DNA of 64,000 bases from Candidatus Poribacteria bacterium (GCA_965242965.1 OZ251518.1:896001-960000); one strand, 5' to 3'. Shown: positions 3,710 through 10,415, numbered from the stretch's first letter. The notes: generated by a model from the sequence alone, not told the origin. Translations and numbers: made by a program.

Positions 3710-4549
3710 TTACAACGCATAAAACGCTAAAGCATTCTGATAGAAGAGACGATTTTTCTCGGCATCGGAGGCATCGGCGACGGCGTAGAGGAGCGCGTCC
3801 ACCCACTCGCGATAGGTGGCGGCGAGGGTGCATACAGGCCAATCACTCCCGAACATGAGCCTGTCATACCCGAACGCCTCCACGAGGTGCAGGATGTAAG
3901 GCTTCAGTTCTTCCGATGTCCAATTTGGGCTGGCCATCGTCACGATGCCAGAGACTTTGCAATGGACGTTCTCAAAGGCGGCGAGTTCGCGGACGTGGGT
4001 TGCCCACGGCTCGAATTTGCCGCCTTTTACGTCCGGTCCGCCGCAGTGATTCATCGCGTGTCTCACATCGGGTGTCGCCTTCACCAATTCAATCGCCGCG
4101 GGGAGTTGCGCGTGATTTGCACAAAGTTCAAACGAGAGATTGAATTTCGGCAGCAATTTTACACCGGCGATGAGTTCGGGACTGGCATAGAAGCGATTGT
4201 CTGGGATGTGCCACGCCATGCGCCGCACGGCGACGACGAGTTCAAACGCGGCGAGTTGTTCCAAGACAGCTTCGGCGTTCGGTTTTTCGAGGGGTGCAGC
4301 GGCGGCTATCGCGCCTATCATCCCATCTTTTTCAGCGATGTCGGTTAGCCATTGAACTTCTTGGACGACTTGCGTTTCGCCCGGGTCGCCTTCAACGTGA
4401 ACGGATTTGACGACGTTCAAATCGCCGATGGCATCGCGATAATCTTGTGGGGTATACCGTTTCCGCAGCGAGTCAACATCGTCTAGCCACGGGTATTCTA
4501 GTTGTGCGGTATCCCAGAGGTGTTGGTGTGTATCAATGATTTTGCGCAT
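3710..4549 (-). CDS. Amidohydrolase_2 family protein (sugar lactonase-like)
   Basis: IIDTHQHLW, NHCGGP, CKVSG and RLMFGSDWPV motifs. Confidence 0.88.
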   Translation of the reverse strand: MRKIIDTHQHLWDTAQLEYPWLDDVDSLRKRYTPQDYRDAIGDLNVVKSVHVEGDPGETQVVQEVQWLTDIAEKDGMIGAIAAAAPLEKPNAEAVLEQLAAFELVVAVRRMAWHIPDNRFYASPELIAGVKLLPKFNLSFELCANHAQLPAAIELVKATPDVRHAMNHCGGPDVKGGKFEPWATHVRELAAFENVHCKVSGIVTMASPNWTSEELKPYILHLVEAFGYDRLMFGSDWPVCTLAATYREWVDALLYAVADASDAEKNRLFYQNALAFYAL

Positions 4550-4618
4550 ATTTTGTCCTCAGGTTTATACCAAATGAAGTTGATTTGTTTCGTCCCAGTA
4601 GTTCTGGTTTCTTTGGTA

Positions 4619-5470
4619 TTATACCGTATTGATGAAGATATCCAAATGTTCTTGGCTATCGTTTTCAGGATTGAACGTCCGTAATTCTTCGCGTTTTGCT
4701 GCTCTCACGAGCCGCTTATCGGAGCATACCAAAACCAGGTCACCTCCGGCAGCTCGCAAATTGTTTGCTTCATCAAGCGCGCATTGAAGGATAAGGGCAT
4801 CGCTACTGTTGATGGCGTGAGCCGCAATCAGTTTGCGCGCAGCAATTTTCTGATTAGGGGTTGCCTCTAATTGTACTACCTCGGCATGATTGACAACTTC
4901 CGCCTCAAATTTTTCGATGGCTTGATCGTGGTCAGGTTGAATCAGCCCTCCATCCGGCTTCCGAAGTTTTCTAGCCATAACAGCATAGACTTCGTTGAGA
5001 CTATCAACCAAACAGAGGATTCGCGAGGTGGGGATGTGCACGAAGAAATAGTTGATTAGTTGCGTGCCTTTTTCATCAACGTACCGTTTGGCGAAAGCAT
5101 TGGCATCAACCCAGAAATAAATTAGGCTATTGCGTTGCGGGATGATGCTGATTTCTTCAACTTCTCTCTTAACCGCCCTCTCATTGGCTTGTGTCCGTCG
5201 CCACTTTACGTCCTTTAACCATTCGTCACGATACCGAGTCACTAGGGGAGCATCCAATTTACGTCCAAATCCACCTGTAATTTGTGTCTGGTTATGGTGC
5301 TCAAGACAAAGAACAACGAGGTTTTCCAAAGTGTTATTGCTTGGCTCTCCATCAATGTGATGAATTTGAACGGTTTTCCCGTTTTCGCGACAGACACAAC
5401 AGGTTCTATCGGCGGCAAACATGACATCTGCCGCTAAGTCCTTTGGAATCGGTATTCGTTTTTTCTTCAT
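4619..5470 (-). CDS. HNH endonuclease - PIN (VapC-like) ribonuclease fusion
   Basis: N-terminus CCVC...IHHIDG..SNN..ENLVVLC..HH; C-terminal PIN acidic tetrad VDANA / LNEV / SSDAL / CSDKRL. Confidence 0.8.
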   Translation of the reverse strand: MKKKRIPIPKDLAADVMFAADRTCCVCRENGKTVQIHHIDGEPSNNTLENLVVLCLEHHNQTQITGGFGRKLDAPLVTRYRDEWLKDVKWRRTQANERAVKREVEEISIIPQRNSLIYFWVDANAFAKRYVDEKGTQLINYFFVHIPTSRILCLVDSLNEVYAVMARKLRKPDGGLIQPDHDQAIEKFEAEVVNHAEVVQLEATPNQKIAARKLIAAHAINSSDALILQCALDEANNLRAAGGDLVLVCSDKRLVRAAKREELRTFNPENDSQEHLDIFINTV

Positions 5471-5570
5471 GTGCGTCCTAGAAATCCCTAGAGGAAGCAG
5501 TCCTCGCGTGCATCATTTGCGCCGAAATATAGGCCGGCGACGGAAGCGGTTGTCAGTGTTTTCCGCCATC

Positions 5571-8500
5571 TCAATCATGATACTCATCGTAAAGAGTTCT
5601 TAAGAAGTCAAACCCGGCTTCCCCATAGAGATTGCAGATCCGATCGGCAATCTGCTTCTGTCCGGCACGATACAGAATGCGGACGGTTTCCTCAATATCA
5701 GTCCGATCGTAATACGGGTACGTTTCATTGGCTAGCATGTCAGATAAATCTCCCCAACTTCCGCGGGGGTTTTGGAGACATGCAGTCGCAACGCCTCAAC
5801 GAAAAATGCGACCTTGTGACGTTTGATGGAACTTATTGACAGTTTTAACCAGTTGAGAACTTCCGCGTCTATCTGATCGACTAAGGCTACCCATCCAGAC
5901 AAACGGGAGAAGACCTCCTGATATTCCGACACGTCCTCTTTTCGGGAAAGCGATTCACACAAGGCACGCCATGTCGGCCGAACCTTTTCCTTCAATTTCG
6001 CCGGGAGAGCATCCCTTTGCCGCCAGAAAAAATGAATCAGTGCGGAGAGAAGTTCCGGGGATCCGTGGTTTATCAACTGATAAATGAGGCTCGTCTCATC
6101 TTCCAGCGTCTCTGCCGAGCCAATTGCCCAACCGACACAAATGTGGGTAACGAGAGTTTCCCTTACCCCACGCGCCTCCGTCTCATTACCAAAATTTGTC
6201 TCTAAAGCCCACTGATAGTGGCCATGTTCCTTATCCTTAAGCAAGGCATAGAGATCGGAGTAGACTTGGCTGGAATAGAACAGGTATCCCGAAAAAGCGG
6301 CATGCCAATGAACGTCATTCTCCTGCGGGAAAATGCGATCGACATTGGCGATGACCCACGCCTTGTCTAGGTAAAACAGATTCGGCAAGTAGGCACCCAG
6401 CGTGAAGGAAAATTCCAAAGCGTATTCCACCCGCCGGTCTAGTCTTTTCGTGAATTCCTCACGAACGGCGTGCGGCCATCGACTACCGTCCTTTTCGGCA
6501 GTGTCGTTCGTGCGCGCGAACCGTAAGGCGTAGTTTATCATCGTCGAAAACACCTTACCTCTACCCGAATTCAGAACAGTAAAAGGCAGATTTTTCAAGG
6601 CAGTCACGCTCGGTTTCACCTTCTCTACCAGAACGAAAAGGATTTGTTCGGCGAGCGGCAAGAGATTGACATCAAACGCATGATTATCATCCTCTGTCCC
6701 GGCTGCTATCAAATCTACCGTGGCAGAAAGAATCCAGTTCCGATGACTCAAGCGAGGCATTTGTTGCTCGGCCCAGAATGTTTCGGACGAGAGGCATTGA
6801 TGGATGAATGCCAGCAACGCCTCCCAATTGACCTCCCTTTTCTCGCGCCACGCTTTCAAGAACCCTTGTAAGATCGAAGTTTGATACAGGGGAGGAACAT
6901 ATTGAAAAGACAGCAGGTTCTCCGTAAACCGTTCGGGATCCGTGGCAACGCATTCTTCAAGTGTATTCCCTAATCCGAGCGCAGTCGGTACCGACGGGTC
7001 TATCAGTGGAGTTTCTTTGAAGTTTCGCAGATATGCAGCGATTTCGGCATTAGACATCCCAGCCAGAACTTCAACTGTGATGGGACTTGTCTCTCCTACC
7101 CAGAACCCCGGAGTTGTAGAAAAATGGAGTCCAGGCATCTCAAGTTTCGCAGGATTAATCTGCTCATACTTCTCAATGGCGGTTAAAACCTTTTCGTTGC
7201 CTGTTCCTACGAGCGCGGAGAGCCACTCTCGCTTTTCGTTCGCTCGTTCTTCAGCATCCTCGGGTAACGCAGCATCCTGATATGACTCTATCCAGTGCAA
7301 AAGCTGCTCTATTTCGGCATCACTAAACGCCGTGCAGTGGGTTTGGATGAGGTCGTAAAGTCCCGGCTTCAGCAAAACCTCTTCAAGGGGATTACCTTGC
7401 CATTTCCAGAACAGCCTCTTCAAGTCCGCGTAATGGTGCTTGATTGCATTTAGTGCTATCAAACCGAAAATAGCGCGCGACTCGCGCCGCGATTCTTGGA
7501 GCAATGCCTCCACCGTTTCGGCGATGCTCTCAGGTGTAGCAAACTGAAGCAGCCTGCAGGTGAAACGGACCGCGAACTCCGGATAGTCTTCGTCAGCGTG
7601 CTTGGAAGCATCTCCTTCAACTAACTGTATCCAGAAAAACACGTGAGGGTCATCAACTATCAGCGTTTGAATGCGCTTCAGTCCTAACTGTGCTGCCTCA
7701 ACGCCACATAACCGCGCAATGGTTTGCTCCCTATTTCTCAACGCGTCCTTAAGGGAATAGGCATCAACCGACTCATCAAGAACTACTTTGAGCAGCCCGA
7801 GGGTTAACTCTTTCGCGCCGGCATCGAGAAGTTTGGGCAAAATCGTTTCGCCGACTTCTTCAATTAACAACGGGCCTACCTCTACGCCGCTGGTTTTCAA
7901 GGCTGTGCCGATAAAAGCGATATGACGCGCGTCTATCATGCCCACAGGCAATGTCCCGATAATGTCGATGAGCCGCCAAGCCGTATGACTGTTAACGATA
8001 CCCCCACTAGCGTCAGCGGCATTGACGATGTATTCAACGATGTCATTGACGATTTTCACAAGAACACCGACAGGTCTATCTGGATGCTTGGCAACCCGTG
8101 CGACGTAATTTAACGCGTACCAGGTAGGCATATGGTAGTTTCCGGGTGAACCAACGACTTCCTGCGGCGCGGGATTCCGCTCCGGATTAAACCAACCGTC
8201 TACTTTTAGGGGCTTCAACCAGGCAGGAGAATCCAACTTGGAGAAGAAATACGCGCGGCGGACATCCGATGCCAAAAGATTGGGCAACGTCTTTACGATC
8301 TGCTCGTTCGGTTCCTTAAGTTCAAGGAACCGGTCCAACCGACTAAGGAGATTGAAATGGTTTCCCACCAGATCTACCAAAACGTTCTCAAAATCGTTCC
8401 ACAGCGGCACAAAAACATCTCTTGTCCGAGGCGGTTTCCACGCACCGTGGCGATGGGCAAACTTAGCGAAGCGTTTCGCTACCTTTATCCACCTTTTAGC

Positions 8501-8944
8501 AATTGGCGAGTCTTCGTCGGTGCCAAGAAATTGCAAGATTGAATCTTTGTGTCCACCTTGCTTCTTTTTGTAACTCAACTTGACGGTCCCCGGCACATTG
8601 ATGTCAAACTCAAGGTGCTTTCCCATCTCCTGCTCGTCCGTTAATCTCCCACCGTCCGGAGTTTGAACAACGACTTCCAAGGCATCTCTTCTTTTTACCT
8701 TGAGAACATCCGTCAAGCCGCCCTCAATCTCACGCGCAATATGCGCGAGAAGATAGGGGGCAGACTCTAAATCGTTGTCGCGCAAAACCTTTATCCCGGA
8801 AAGATAAAAGGCAGCGATTTCAGGTCCGATAGCCTCCAAATTCCGGTAAATTTCCGCTTGCCGGGGAGACATCTCCAATTCGCGGTTTTGGAGACTCTCC
8901 GGCACGTGCGATAAGTCTGGTGTCTCGTCAAAATTGCTATACAT
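5571..8944 (-). CDS. Large alpha-helical protein with N-terminal HEPN-like motif; apparent 1-nt frameshift near the C-terminus
   Basis: 1070-aa ORF 5732-8944 with LLAHIARE and RFAKFAH (Rx5H). A shifted frame from about 5740 continues MLANETYPYYDRTDIEETVRILYRAGQKQIADRICNLYGEAGFDFLRTLYDEYHD to TGA at 5571. Confidence 0.7.
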
Positions 8945-9035
8945 AATTCCACCTTCCTGGTTTGACTAAAGATTGATGCACGCCGTCCGGTCCGAGTGCC
9001 GCCTGCTGTCGCGACGTTCACGAACCAACGTATCT

Positions 9036-9064
9036 AGTCTACCCTAAAAACCTCAAATTTGCAA
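9036..9064 (-). promoter_or_regulatory. Proximal sigma70-type promoter of the 8944 gene
   Basis: TTGCAA, 17 nt, TAGACT on the minus strand. Confidence 0.55.
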
Positions 9065-9105
9065 ACAAAAAACGCCGAGTGTCATCAACAATAGGTGCTA
9101 ACCGT

Positions 9106-9138
9106 ATATATGTTAACACATATTCAAGCGAATGTCAA
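9106..9138 (-). promoter_or_regulatory. Distal sigma70-type promoter with an overlapping 18-bp near-perfect palindrome
   Basis: TTGACA, 17 nt, TAACAT on the minus strand; ATATATGTTAACACATAT at 9106-9123. Confidence 0.5.
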
Positions 9139-9168
9139 ATTATTTTTTTCGCCGCATCGTGCCTGGTT

Positions 9169-9305
9169 CTGTAGTTCGGGAGCGCCTGCTCCCGAACGGG
9201 TCAGGATCAGGCGATCCTGACCTACAGGTGTGGCGGCGGCGTGCTGGCCGCCGCGCGTGTTGGGTTGCGCGAGGCATGGCGAGGGACAGGCCCTCGCCCT
9301 ACGGT
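9169..9305. repeat. REP/REPIN cluster
   Basis: CTGTAG-hairpin-GG-hairpin-CTACAG doublet plus GGCGAGGGACAGGCCCTCGCCCTAC. Confidence 0.88.
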
Positions 9306-9340
9306 GAAGAGGTGGCGTTTTTTTCACACCCTGACATTTT

Positions 9341-10126
9341 CTATCGACGCGCCTTGAGATCTCCCCAGGTTGTGGCGAGTTTATCCTGCGGTTGCACCGA
9401 AAGAAATTCGCCATCCATTACCTCTTTAATCTCGGCCTCTGATAACGCACGGTTGAAGATGTAGAATTCATCCATGAGACCATCGAACCATCTCCCATTT
9501 TTATGATGCCCGATTGCGGCTTGGACATCCCAGTTATCGGAGAGTTCCCCGTCGCCTTTCGCCTCATGCGTTTCTTTCCCATCAACGTAGGTTCGCGTCG
9601 TGCCGCCTTTGCTATCGTAGGTGCCGGTAAAGTGAACCCACTTGCCGCCTTTGATAATCGGCCCCGGATTGATGTTGAATACCTCTTTCTCGGCACCATC
9701 CCGATGAAACCACCGGAAACCGGCAGGCCGGATTTCGACGTGGTAAAGCCCACTACCGTGGTCCGTCCCGATGGCATCAAAGATACTCTGCGGTTCTGCC
9801 GAGTCGTTGTGATTCACCCAAACGGCGATAGTGATGCCTTCAAGCGGAACGTTTTCAAACTCCGGGCCATTCAGATTTACCCACGTGTTGGGCTCCAAGA
9901 CGATGGCTTTTTCGATTACCCCGTCTTCGCGGGCGGCTTTCCCTTCAATTTTCCCATCGTTGCCATAGATGGAGCCATCTTTGACGGTATCACCGTTGCC
10001 GTCAAAGTTGTAGTAGACAGACAACGTCGGATCGCTGAGGTCTGCCGCCGCTGAAAGCGCGCATGCAACTGTCATGCACACGACAGCGAGGAAAACGTGA
10101 AAGGATTTTATGGAATTGTAAGACAT
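9341..10126 (-). CDS. Secreted LamG/concanavalin-like domain protein with C-terminal VQPQDKLATTWGDLK motif
   Basis: Signal peptide; YYNFDG, WVHFTGTYD, YVDGKE, FDGLMDEFYIFNRALS. Confidence 0.88.
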   Translation of the reverse strand: MSYNSIKSFHVFLAVVCMTVACALSAAADLSDPTLSVYYNFDGNGDTVKDGSIYGNDGKIEGKAAREDGVIEKAIVLEPNTWVNLNGPEFENVPLEGITIAVWVNHNDSAEPQSIFDAIGTDHGSGLYHVEIRPAGFRWFHRDGAEKEVFNINPGPIIKGGKWVHFTGTYDSKGGTTRTYVDGKETHEAKGDGELSDNWDVQAAIGHHKNGRWFDGLMDEFYIFNRALSEAEIKEVMDGEFLSVQPQDKLATTWGDLKARR

Positions 10127-10187: not shown

Positions 10188-10358
10188 GCTCGCGAGGGAC
10201 AGGCCCTCGCACTACGGTAAAGTAAAATCCGTTCGGGAGCAGGCGCTCCCGAACTACAGAGGGGACAGGTCCTCGCGCTACGGTAACGTTAAAATTGCGC
10301 GGTTGCATCGAGACCGGGAGGTCTCTCCTACCAGGCCCTCGCGCTACGGTAACGTTAA
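10188..10358. repeat. REP cluster
   Basis: Fragments of three hairpin families; CTCGCGCTACGGTAACGTTAA occurs twice. Confidence 0.8.
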
Positions 10359-10415
10359 CATTCCGTTGCAAACATTATAGCATTAAACCATTAAAAATGG
10401 AAATGCCATTTTTTC

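Follow-up and report, generated by a model that had tools for sequence, protein, structure and literature searches.

The Avs7 sensor is common to Dsr1 and to a HEPN-like protein without a STAND module (PMC13581612, Nature 2026), and in the passages of that article examined it is described as being reused with many effectors. According to the same passages, the phage major capsid protein triggers the sensors of E. coli Dsr1 and Salmonella Avs7, SeAvs7 assembles with the capsid protein and EF-Tu into a large complex, and a HEPN-like head joined to a Dsr1-type sensor is an architecture already in print, as a modelled Streptomyces example only (PMC13581612). Here we describe a relative of these systems in 64,000 nucleotides of a sponge-symbiont genome, Candidatus Poribacteria (GCA_965242965.1, OZ251518.1:896001–960000), a stretch that we call the window. 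Two genes on its minus strand make up the locus: a large gene, whose protein of 1124 amino acids (aa) carries an N-terminal domain other than SIR2 in front of a Dsr1-type sensor body, and behind it a gene for an HNH-PIN fusion protein (Table 1). We conclude with high confidence that the large gene is a Dsr1-type phage sensor in which a predicted nuclease domain has taken the place of the SIR2 head. The exchange of effectors on this sensor, a HEPN-like head among them, is already published, and the locus is therefore a variant of a known family.

The body of the large protein is homologous to the Dsr1 sensor over its full length. Residues 212–1069 match the PADLOC Dsr1 profile (PDLC04166) at profile positions 305–1171 with an E value of 2.5e-209, and the C-terminal tail matches positions 1172–1225 with an E value of 1.5e-17. 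Positions 1–304 of the profile are unmatched by the large protein. The SIR2 part of the profile occupies positions 5–301 and is matched by a stand-alone SIR2 protein encoded on a Vibrio plasmid; the gene beside it in this split pair is a sensor that matches positions 311–1213. Since the unmatched part of the profile is the part matched by the stand-alone SIR2 protein, the large protein lacks exactly the SIR2 NADase portion, and because it has no such domain, NAD+ depletion by it is not expected. Pfam and NCBIfam scans of the large protein gave no family matches, SIR2 included. Bacillus plasmids carry "SIR2 family protein" genes to which the body is, by tblastn, 22–24% identical over 82–99% of its length, and the Vibrio sensor gene of the split pair is a tblastn match as well; the SIR2-bearing relatives came from a plasmid collection, the region-restricted homologue search being saturated by close Poribacteria relatives. 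A sequence-only reading of the window had compared the long helical body with defence-associated sirtuins on the basis of layout, and the profile match turns that likeness into homology. Its description of the protein as an effector-swapped sensor also holds, in that the SIR2 part of the Dsr1 profile is replaced by another domain. Its statement that the combination matches no named system was wrong for the large gene, which PADLOC names Dsr1. Profile annotation will label such genes "Dsr1" although NAD+ depletion is not expected of them.

The comparison with the described systems can be made part by part. Like EcDsr1, the large protein is a single chain with an N-terminal effector followed by a homologous C-terminal sensor of ~900 residues, and it shares with Dsr1 a defence-island-like occurrence. 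It differs in having, in place of the SIR2 NADase, a 211-aa helical domain with an H-x2-RE/HR signature, and in the PIN gene that lies downstream of the sensor in Poribacteria. With Avs7 it shares the sensor class and, by analogy, the likely trigger, the phage major capsid protein, but it has no STAND NTPase (the 1070-aa open reading frame (ORF) gives no Pfam match, and PADLOC gives Dsr1 only). The Streptomyces HEPN-like sensor protein is, by its published description, of the same architecture class. The terms "HEPN", "Dsr1" and "Poribacteria" do not occur in the 7 supplementary files of PMC13581612 searched, and the passages of the article examined contain no mention of a PIN or HNH-PIN partner.

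The N-terminal domain (N-domain) brings to the Dsr1/Avs7 sensor a candidate effector head that is widespread and uncharacterised. A HMMER search with residues 1–215 against 1.84 billion representative proteins returned 363 clusters at E ≤ 0.001. Among the best 150 of these, nearly all full-length members are ~1050–1240 aa long with the domain at the N-terminus, and the domain therefore goes with the Dsr1-type sensor. Conservation, counted over 150 aligned sequences, is concentrated in a few positions that are close to invariant: H68 (144/146), R71 (144/146), E72 (146/146), H164 (143/145), R165 (134/146) and W182 (142/142). The segments LLAHIARE and RFAKFAH that the sequence-only reading had picked out are indeed present, at residues 65–72 and 158–164. 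In the AlphaFold2 model (mean predicted local distance difference test (pLDDT) score 85.4) the helices pack into a bundle that is interrupted by an insert of three strands; helix 2 and the loop that follows helix 3 hold the conserved residues. Many relatives lack the insert, at residues 82–130, or have other sequence in its place, and some of these relatives carry a CxxC there.

The model shows a tentative resemblance to HEPN RNases such as MNT-HEPN, RnlA/LsoA, Csm6 and Las1 in its up-down helical bundle. In an exhaustive VIA-align comparison, HEPN proteins, judged in part by title, fill 16 of the 27 top rows, at Z 6.3–8.2 and a root-mean-square deviation of 3.1–4.4 Å over 104–128 residues; such Z values are common for helical bundles and make the likeness a lead. 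Among the rows counted are the SO_3166 toxin, RnlA, LsoA, AF_0298, TT1696, the sacsin HEPN domain, Las1 and Csm6. A second possible likeness to these RNases is a predicted symmetric dimer with conserved His and Arg at its interface. The homodimer prediction scored 0.58, the best of 3 controls 0.00; among proteins of solved structure, 20 of 30 homodimers and 1 of 23 single chains attain that mark. At least 75% of the contacts are common to the runs, the partner pLDDT is at least 65, and the interface, residues 39–80 and 163–172, includes H68-I69, E72 and the H164-R165 loop. Finally, four tandem variants of 1238–1285 aa (P0390, P0400, P0419 and P0424) carry two copies of the N-domain before a Dsr1-type sensor and recall two-HEPN proteins; both copies retain AHLARE and the His downstream of it, which in the second is followed by R or K. 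Taken from models and conservation, the N-domain would fit a HEPN-style, dimerization-activated nuclease with a non-canonical motif. The signature proposed as catalytic, H-x2-R-E ... H-R, is not the canonical HEPN motif; it has a remote link to the unstudied family pP_pnuc_1.

That link comes from several searches. In the ESM Atlas the N-domain lies next to pP_pnuc_1 clusters (score 0.92). A search of 101 genomes of the phylum yielded a second, distant Poribacteria family of ~1200 aa, with a pP_pnuc_1-like N-domain and, per PADLOC, a Dsr1-type sensor; PF18165 (pP_pnuc_1) matches above the Pfam cut-off in 6 of the 101 genomes. When the two N-domain families are aligned with hhalign (E 5.6e-5), AHxxRE falls on AHxxRE and xHR on xHH. 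The family, described as a "predicted pPIWI-associating nuclease" and also matching PADLOC Aga_Nuclease, thus shares with the N-domain its N-terminal position on sister Dsr1-type sensors. The window N-domain differs in having an extra beta insert and, like the 34 relatives scanned with it, in giving no direct PF18165 match at E ≤ 5. A remote relation between the two is, on these sequence comparisons, moderately supported. A literature search found no experimental work on pP_pnuc_1 or PF18165. The sister family is exemplified by L102:1559–5185 and L103:1696–5343 (genomes G047 and G069; ~1210 aa; PADLOC E 1.8e-15 and 2.3e-23). In L103 the gene immediately upstream of the sensor encodes a type III methylase, and in L102 a Res-like DEAH helicase ORF, recognized by motifs only, follows the sensor directly.

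The reading to which we lean, with modest confidence, is that the large protein is a single-chain sensor-effector of the Dsr1/Avs7 class and that HNH-PIN is its linked companion. The sensor, the ~910 C-terminal residues, would by homology have the phage major capsid protein as its trigger. The N-domain, inactive as a monomer, would be brought together with a second N-domain when the trigger induces assembly of the sensor, and at the two-fold interface the conserved His, Arg and Glu residues would then make up a composite nuclease site of the HEPN type. Cleavage of RNA (or DNA) at that site would stop phage growth. On the strength of homology, conservation and the dimer model, this capsid-triggered pairing of N-domains appears the most likely mechanism. 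The PIN half of the companion would descend from a VapC-type toxin that is usually found directly behind the sensor in Poribacteria, the HNH head having been added by a recent fusion. Relatives of the sensor outside Poribacteria are single genes, and HNH-PIN is for that reason probably not needed for sensing.

Several observations weigh against this single-chain reading. The arginine of the Rx5H segment that the sequence-only reading took for a HEPN motif, R158, is R in 10 of 145 relatives (others are K in 47, Q in 20, N in 15 and E in 15), which rules out canonical HEPN membership by way of that motif; the near-invariant residues are those given above. More generally, the Rx4-6H motif of HEPN RNases is not conserved in the N-domain family. 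Position 78, an R in 129 of 145 relatives, is occupied by T in the window protein. A Foldseek search of the N-domain against PDB gave no match at E ≤ 0.001, and sequence searches against Pfam, NCBIfam and PDB gave nothing, a HEPN family included. VIA-align Z values up to 8.9 are in the chance range for helical bundles, and a designed protein heads the list. Of the proposed HEPN identity of the N-terminus, a resemblance of fold at modest scores remains, and membership by sequence is unsupported. The hhalign probability linking the domain to the pP_pnuc_1-like family is just 66%. The passing dimer prediction expresses model confidence on a custom alignment and is no demonstration of activity, and the proposed trigger is carried over from proteins ~22–24% identical in the sensor. 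Lastly, the linkage of the PIN gene described below is tight enough to fit an obligate partner too.

The second gene encodes, as the sequence-only reading had proposed, both an HNH and a PIN module. The Pfam matches lie slightly below cut-off (HNH_3, E 5.5e-5 and 23.2 bits vs 24.8; PIN, 23.4 bits vs 23.6), and they are backed by a PADLOC ZorE-HNH match (E 1.1e-6), a VapC-like fold and intact catalytic residues; the NCBIfam ZorE and IscB HNH regions score far below cut-off. Each of the eight HNH signature residues (Table 1) is kept in 31 of 31 HNH-bearing sequences (alignment A5), although the HNH model is poor (pLDDT 40–60) and leaves the fold unsupported. The PIN model has a pLDDT above 90, its four acidic residues are in place, and Foldseek pairs it with FitB/VapC chains (probability 1.00, E 9e-5 to 1e-3), among them 2h1c_A, 2bsq, 7vwo and 3tnd at E 9e-5 to 4e-4. 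With ZorE, the type II Zorya HNH endonuclease, and with small HNH nucleases, the protein weakly shares a ~40-residue HNH core and nothing else; no Zorya genes lie nearby, and HNH-PIN is not a member of that family. With VapBC/FitAB it shares the fold and the four acidic residues of the PIN half. The cassette PIN differs from that of VapBC/FitAB in having no antitoxin gene upstream, in being fused to HNH and in lying behind an 1124-aa sensor gene.

The HNH-PIN gene is, by its sequence, a recent fusion, because the first ~113 residues are 60–71% identical to the N-terminus of a separate ~267-aa family, HNH-X, and the PIN part starts exactly where stand-alone 160-aa PIN proteins start. The fusion is found in 17 listed clusters (P0270–P0286; 64–93% identity, most full-length) and is restricted to close relatives. 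Further HNH-PIN fusions were not found in genome contigs, which gave PIN-only relatives (3 loci), or in metagenome contigs, which gave 1 short HNH fragment. The HNH-X family itself (P0292–P0389, ~265–268 aa) is widespread and ends in an unrelated C-terminal domain of ~150 aa without a Pfam match; one member, from a Desulfobulbaceae metagenome-assembled genome (MAG), is named HNH endonuclease.

Linkage of a PIN gene to the sensor gene is a feature of Poribacteria. A PIN gene lies directly downstream of the sensor on the same strand in 23 of 77 related loci, all of them from Candidatus Poribacteria and in at least three flank contexts. When 61 genomes of the family are sampled evenly, it is the neighbour at 15 of 17 unsplit sensor loci, and the nine best PIN matches outside the window genome all adjoin a sensor gene. 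The genomes are kin, and these counts are not independent events. Outside Poribacteria (Bacteroidota, Alteromonas, Limnohabitans, Cloacimonetes, Patescibacteria and archaeal MAGs), no PIN gene was found near the sensor at a tblastn E of 1e-3. Within the family sample none adjoins the 13 loci where the sensor is split into two ORFs, and the HNH part is present in none of the 77 related loci. The gene-neighbourhood co-occurrence that the sequence-only reading proposed to check is present at most unsplit Poribacteria loci of the family sample and was not found at the split ones or outside Poribacteria. Its dual-nuclease partner exists as a gene in the window, but the linkage is confined to PIN and to Poribacteria, and PIN proteins of this family are also encoded in an ordinary toxin-antitoxin pair. 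HNH-PIN is a VapC-derived companion inherited and moved together with the sensor in Poribacteria. The recurrence of this PIN neighbour, at times without an antitoxin gene, makes the locus a tractable case in which to look for a possible recruitment of toxin-antitoxin toxins by immune sensors.

The ordinary pair lies in the window genome itself. At L079:1166–1995 (C1:480 kb), between gcvT and gcvH, a 110-aa ORF, c9, and a 165-aa PIN gene of the same family overlap at stop and start, in the order antitoxin-toxin known from VapBC/FitAB, and the pair looks like a classic type II toxin-antitoxin module. Across copies c9 is ~105–110 aa long and has no Pfam match. Copies are found near the sensor in 12 loci, in four of them in the order sensor-c9-PIN; in 18 of the 23 PIN-bearing loci there is no c9 between sensor and PIN. 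No c9-like sequence was found in the window, where the best tblastn E is 1.9. Across the 61 genomes, ~53 of ~68 full-length PIN matches lie away from sensor genes.

Two observations on the sensor and its partners stand beside these counts. A subclade of Poribacteria has a split sensor, with ORFs of ~546 and ~573 aa, which is kept in 17 loci (L011, L012, L026–L028, L030–L032, L034–L037, L039, L040, L050, L052 and L054; for example L031:5938–9317). ORF A ends in ...QWIESTQY*, and the ATG of ORF B lies inside CAATGG ~25 nt upstream, in a different frame. The split point is the variable loop between the sensor halves, and L059 and L062 are broken further. Separately, sensor relatives 79–92% identical to the window protein can be paired, from equal "longest contig" values, with HNH-PIN partners (8436, 5854 and 5357) or with PIN-only partners (5052, 7660, 4372 and 14703), the latter ~50–55% identical to the window PIN. 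These seven coincidences are suggestive of co-occurrence of the fused HNH-PIN with the sensor, and they hint at a quicker exchange of the downstream module than of the sensor gene itself.

The linkage counts could be taken to mean that the two genes form an obligate two-component system, with the large protein as sensor and gatekeeper and HNH-PIN as the real killing effector; the sensor would occupy the gene position of the antitoxin in the ancestral toxin-antitoxin pair, silence the toxin, and release or activate it on meeting a phage protein. We regard this as possible, if unlikely. It would account for the prevalence of PIN at unsplit loci of the family sample and its recurrence in 23 related loci across three flank contexts, for the sensor adjacency of the nine best PIN matches, and for the many loci with no c9 in between, compared with the stand-alone paralogue that has c9 directly upstream. 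Both genes are gained or lost jointly at the site shared with genome G001 (see below), the spacer between them has no promoter-like match, and the catalytic residues of PIN and HNH are intact. An obligate partner is harder to square with the absence of PIN from non-Poribacteria loci and from the 13 split-type loci, or with the majority of full-length PIN matches, which are not near any sensor. A mere gatekeeper would have no need of the catalytic-looking residues of the strongly conserved N-domain, c9 at times lies between both genes as in an ordinary toxin-antitoxin insertion, and among kin genomes the linkage may be shared descent.

A related account, which we think quite unlikely, is that the sensor captured a toxin: in Poribacteria a Dsr1-type capsid sensor gene would have replaced the antitoxin before an orphan VapC-type PIN, later armed in the window's lineage with an HNH DNase head, so that the sensor would have its own nuclease head and also gate a second nuclease. 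If true, this would be a two-effector, sensor-guarded toxin system of a kind not described for Dsr1 or Avs7.

We give still less credence to the view that HNH-PIN has no part in sensing or killing phage and is an unrelated module, selfish or of the addiction type, left over from a toxin-antitoxin pair; having come to lie behind the sensor, it would stabilize the island or hitch-hike on it. The overlapping c9-PIN pair between gcvT and gcvH speaks for such an origin, as do the greater frequency of the PIN family than of the sensor gene (45 of 61 genomes vs 29 of 61), the tandem and decayed c9/PIN copies behind the sensor in several loci, and the HNH head borrowed from the separate HNH-X family. 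A hitch-hiker would not be expected to keep its linkage over three flank contexts and at 40–59% PIN identity, nor would an orphan VapC-type toxin be expected to stay intact in many loci with no adjacent antitoxin gene, and the fusion is itself kept in the 17 clusters listed above. On balance we retain the single-chain sensor-effector with a linked companion as the preferred reading.

The setting of the locus is of the defence type, in agreement with the sequence-only reading. The window cassette is absent from G001, a genome of the same genus, where an unrelated stretch of 239 bp stands in for window 4558–9328 at the syntenic site; by blastn, window 4326–4557 and 9329–9558, outside the breakpoints, match G001 at 88%. 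At the syntenic site of G007 (L087:1313–4365) there is instead an 875-aa Eco57I-type methylase ORF. This ORF overlaps an upstream 183-aa ORF with a PD-(D/E)xK-like motif, and the pair may be one frameshifted type IIG gene. The sensor gene is patchy, being present in the 29 family genomes counted above and in 0 of 2 other genomes searched from the same genus. Among the genes that adjoin it in other genomes are those for an Eco57I-type restriction-modification enzyme, for type III Mod and Res and for a Uma2 nuclease, and in Flavobacteriia relaxase and NikA mobilization genes. In the window the neighbours are ordinary: an SDR, a SPOR-domain protein, an amidohydrolase, a LamG protein and an LRR protein. 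The locus behaves as defence cargo in a variable hotspot, and this polymorphism of presence, absence and replacement marks a defence hotspot in sponge symbionts, for which we know of no phage-host experiments.

The large gene is intact. As assembled, the window holds ORFs of 1070 aa at 5732–8944 and of 283 aa at 4619–5470, both on the minus strand, and 55 extra codons (5570–5738) extend the large protein in a different frame past the ORF stop. These codons correspond to the last 54 positions of the PADLOC Dsr1 profile that also covers the large ORF. More than 100 full-length homologues of 1090–1145 aa are uninterrupted at the frameshift point, where they read LDML, LEML or LGML. The missing base lies in CTG(G)AC and is inserted behind 5740 (C) in all covering contigs from 4 public runs of 3 studies, compared over window 5300–6300; one run may be the sample behind the window assembly, and one public contig differs from the window by the extra base alone. 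The frameshift is an assembly error, and because the public contigs carry the missing base the gene is intact at 1124 aa, in line with the frameshift-corrected length of ~1120 aa in the sequence-only reading. A programmed frameshift at 5740 is likewise ruled out, since the public contigs simply have the extra base.

That the large gene might be a decaying pseudogene, or a helical repeat protein with a function other than defence, is hardly credible: the window frameshift 55 codons before the end, the fragmented copies in some relatives (for example G033 and G013) and the non-defence genes immediately beside it would suit this idea, but the contigs rule out the pseudogene, and the strong full-length conservation with PADLOC Dsr1 homology, the restriction-modification neighbours, the patchy distribution and the hotspot behaviour speak against the rest.

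Table 1. Features of the locus (window coordinates; residue numbers refer to the protein concerned)
Feature	Position	Strand	Description
Mobile cassette	4558–9328	.	4.77 kb, two genes and upstream region; from flank matches, blastn breakpoints and G+C
Two overlapping sigma-70-like promoter matches, 5' of large gene	9088–9138	-	10/12 and 9/12 hexamer matches; consensus only
Large gene, Dsr1-type sensor protein with non-SIR2 N-domain	5570–8944	-	1124 aa across one-base gap
N-terminal domain, candidate nuclease effector	8312–8944	-	Residues 1–211; helical bundle, HEPN-like fold, remote pP_pnuc_1 relative
Motif H68-I-A-R71-E72	8729–8743	-	Family consensus AHxAREI[DE]GG
Variable beta-strand insert	8555–8701	-	Residues 82–130; from alignments; strands 88–94, 100–106 and 122–127 in model
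Motif H164-R165	8450–8455	-	Family consensus AHRxG
Dsr1/Avs7-type sensor body	5573–8311	-	Residues 212–1124; PADLOC Dsr1 profile 305–1225, tblastn
Apparent frameshift site	5740–5741	.	Window short of one base
Intergenic spacer	5471–5569	-	99 bp; no promoter-like match on minus strand
HNH-PIN fusion gene	4619–5470	-	283 aa
HNH module	5267–5470	-	Residues 1–68; C24, C27, H37, H38, N46, N50, C55, H59
Linker	5132–5251	-	Residues 74–113 (model helix 74–108); common to ~267-aa HNH-X family; fusion junction after linker
PIN domain, VapC/FitB-like	4622–5131	-	Residues 114–283; acidic D122, E160, D224, D251

The remaining features of the cassette concern its composition and flanks. The G+C content is 0.46–0.51 over 4501–9000 and 0.53–0.61 in the flanks, and the region is thus AT-richer than its surroundings, as had been noted from the sequence; the gap before the HNH-PIN gene likewise agrees with the ~100 bp given there. 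Of the two upstream promoters proposed in the same place, two sigma-70-like matches can be located, at 9138–9110 and 9116–9088, but their number is not above chance, the region having a total of 6 against 5.0 ± 2.0 in shuffles. No Rfam families or tRNAs were found in or near the cassette, and no direct or inverted repeats bracket it. In public runs X1–X3, two variants of the 3' end of the large gene co-exist over window 5300–6300, one identical to the window and the other with 29 differences in 330 nt, which suggests two strains or two gene copies in the samples. Finally, repetitive extragenic palindromic (REP)-like intergenic repeats at window 9168–9309 and 10192–10365 flank the LamG gene and not the cassette. 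Their units are 31–34 nt long with 66-nt spacing and match dozens of sites in genomes of the same genus, and a 32-nt perfect inverted repeat joins window 9168–9199 to 10229–10260.

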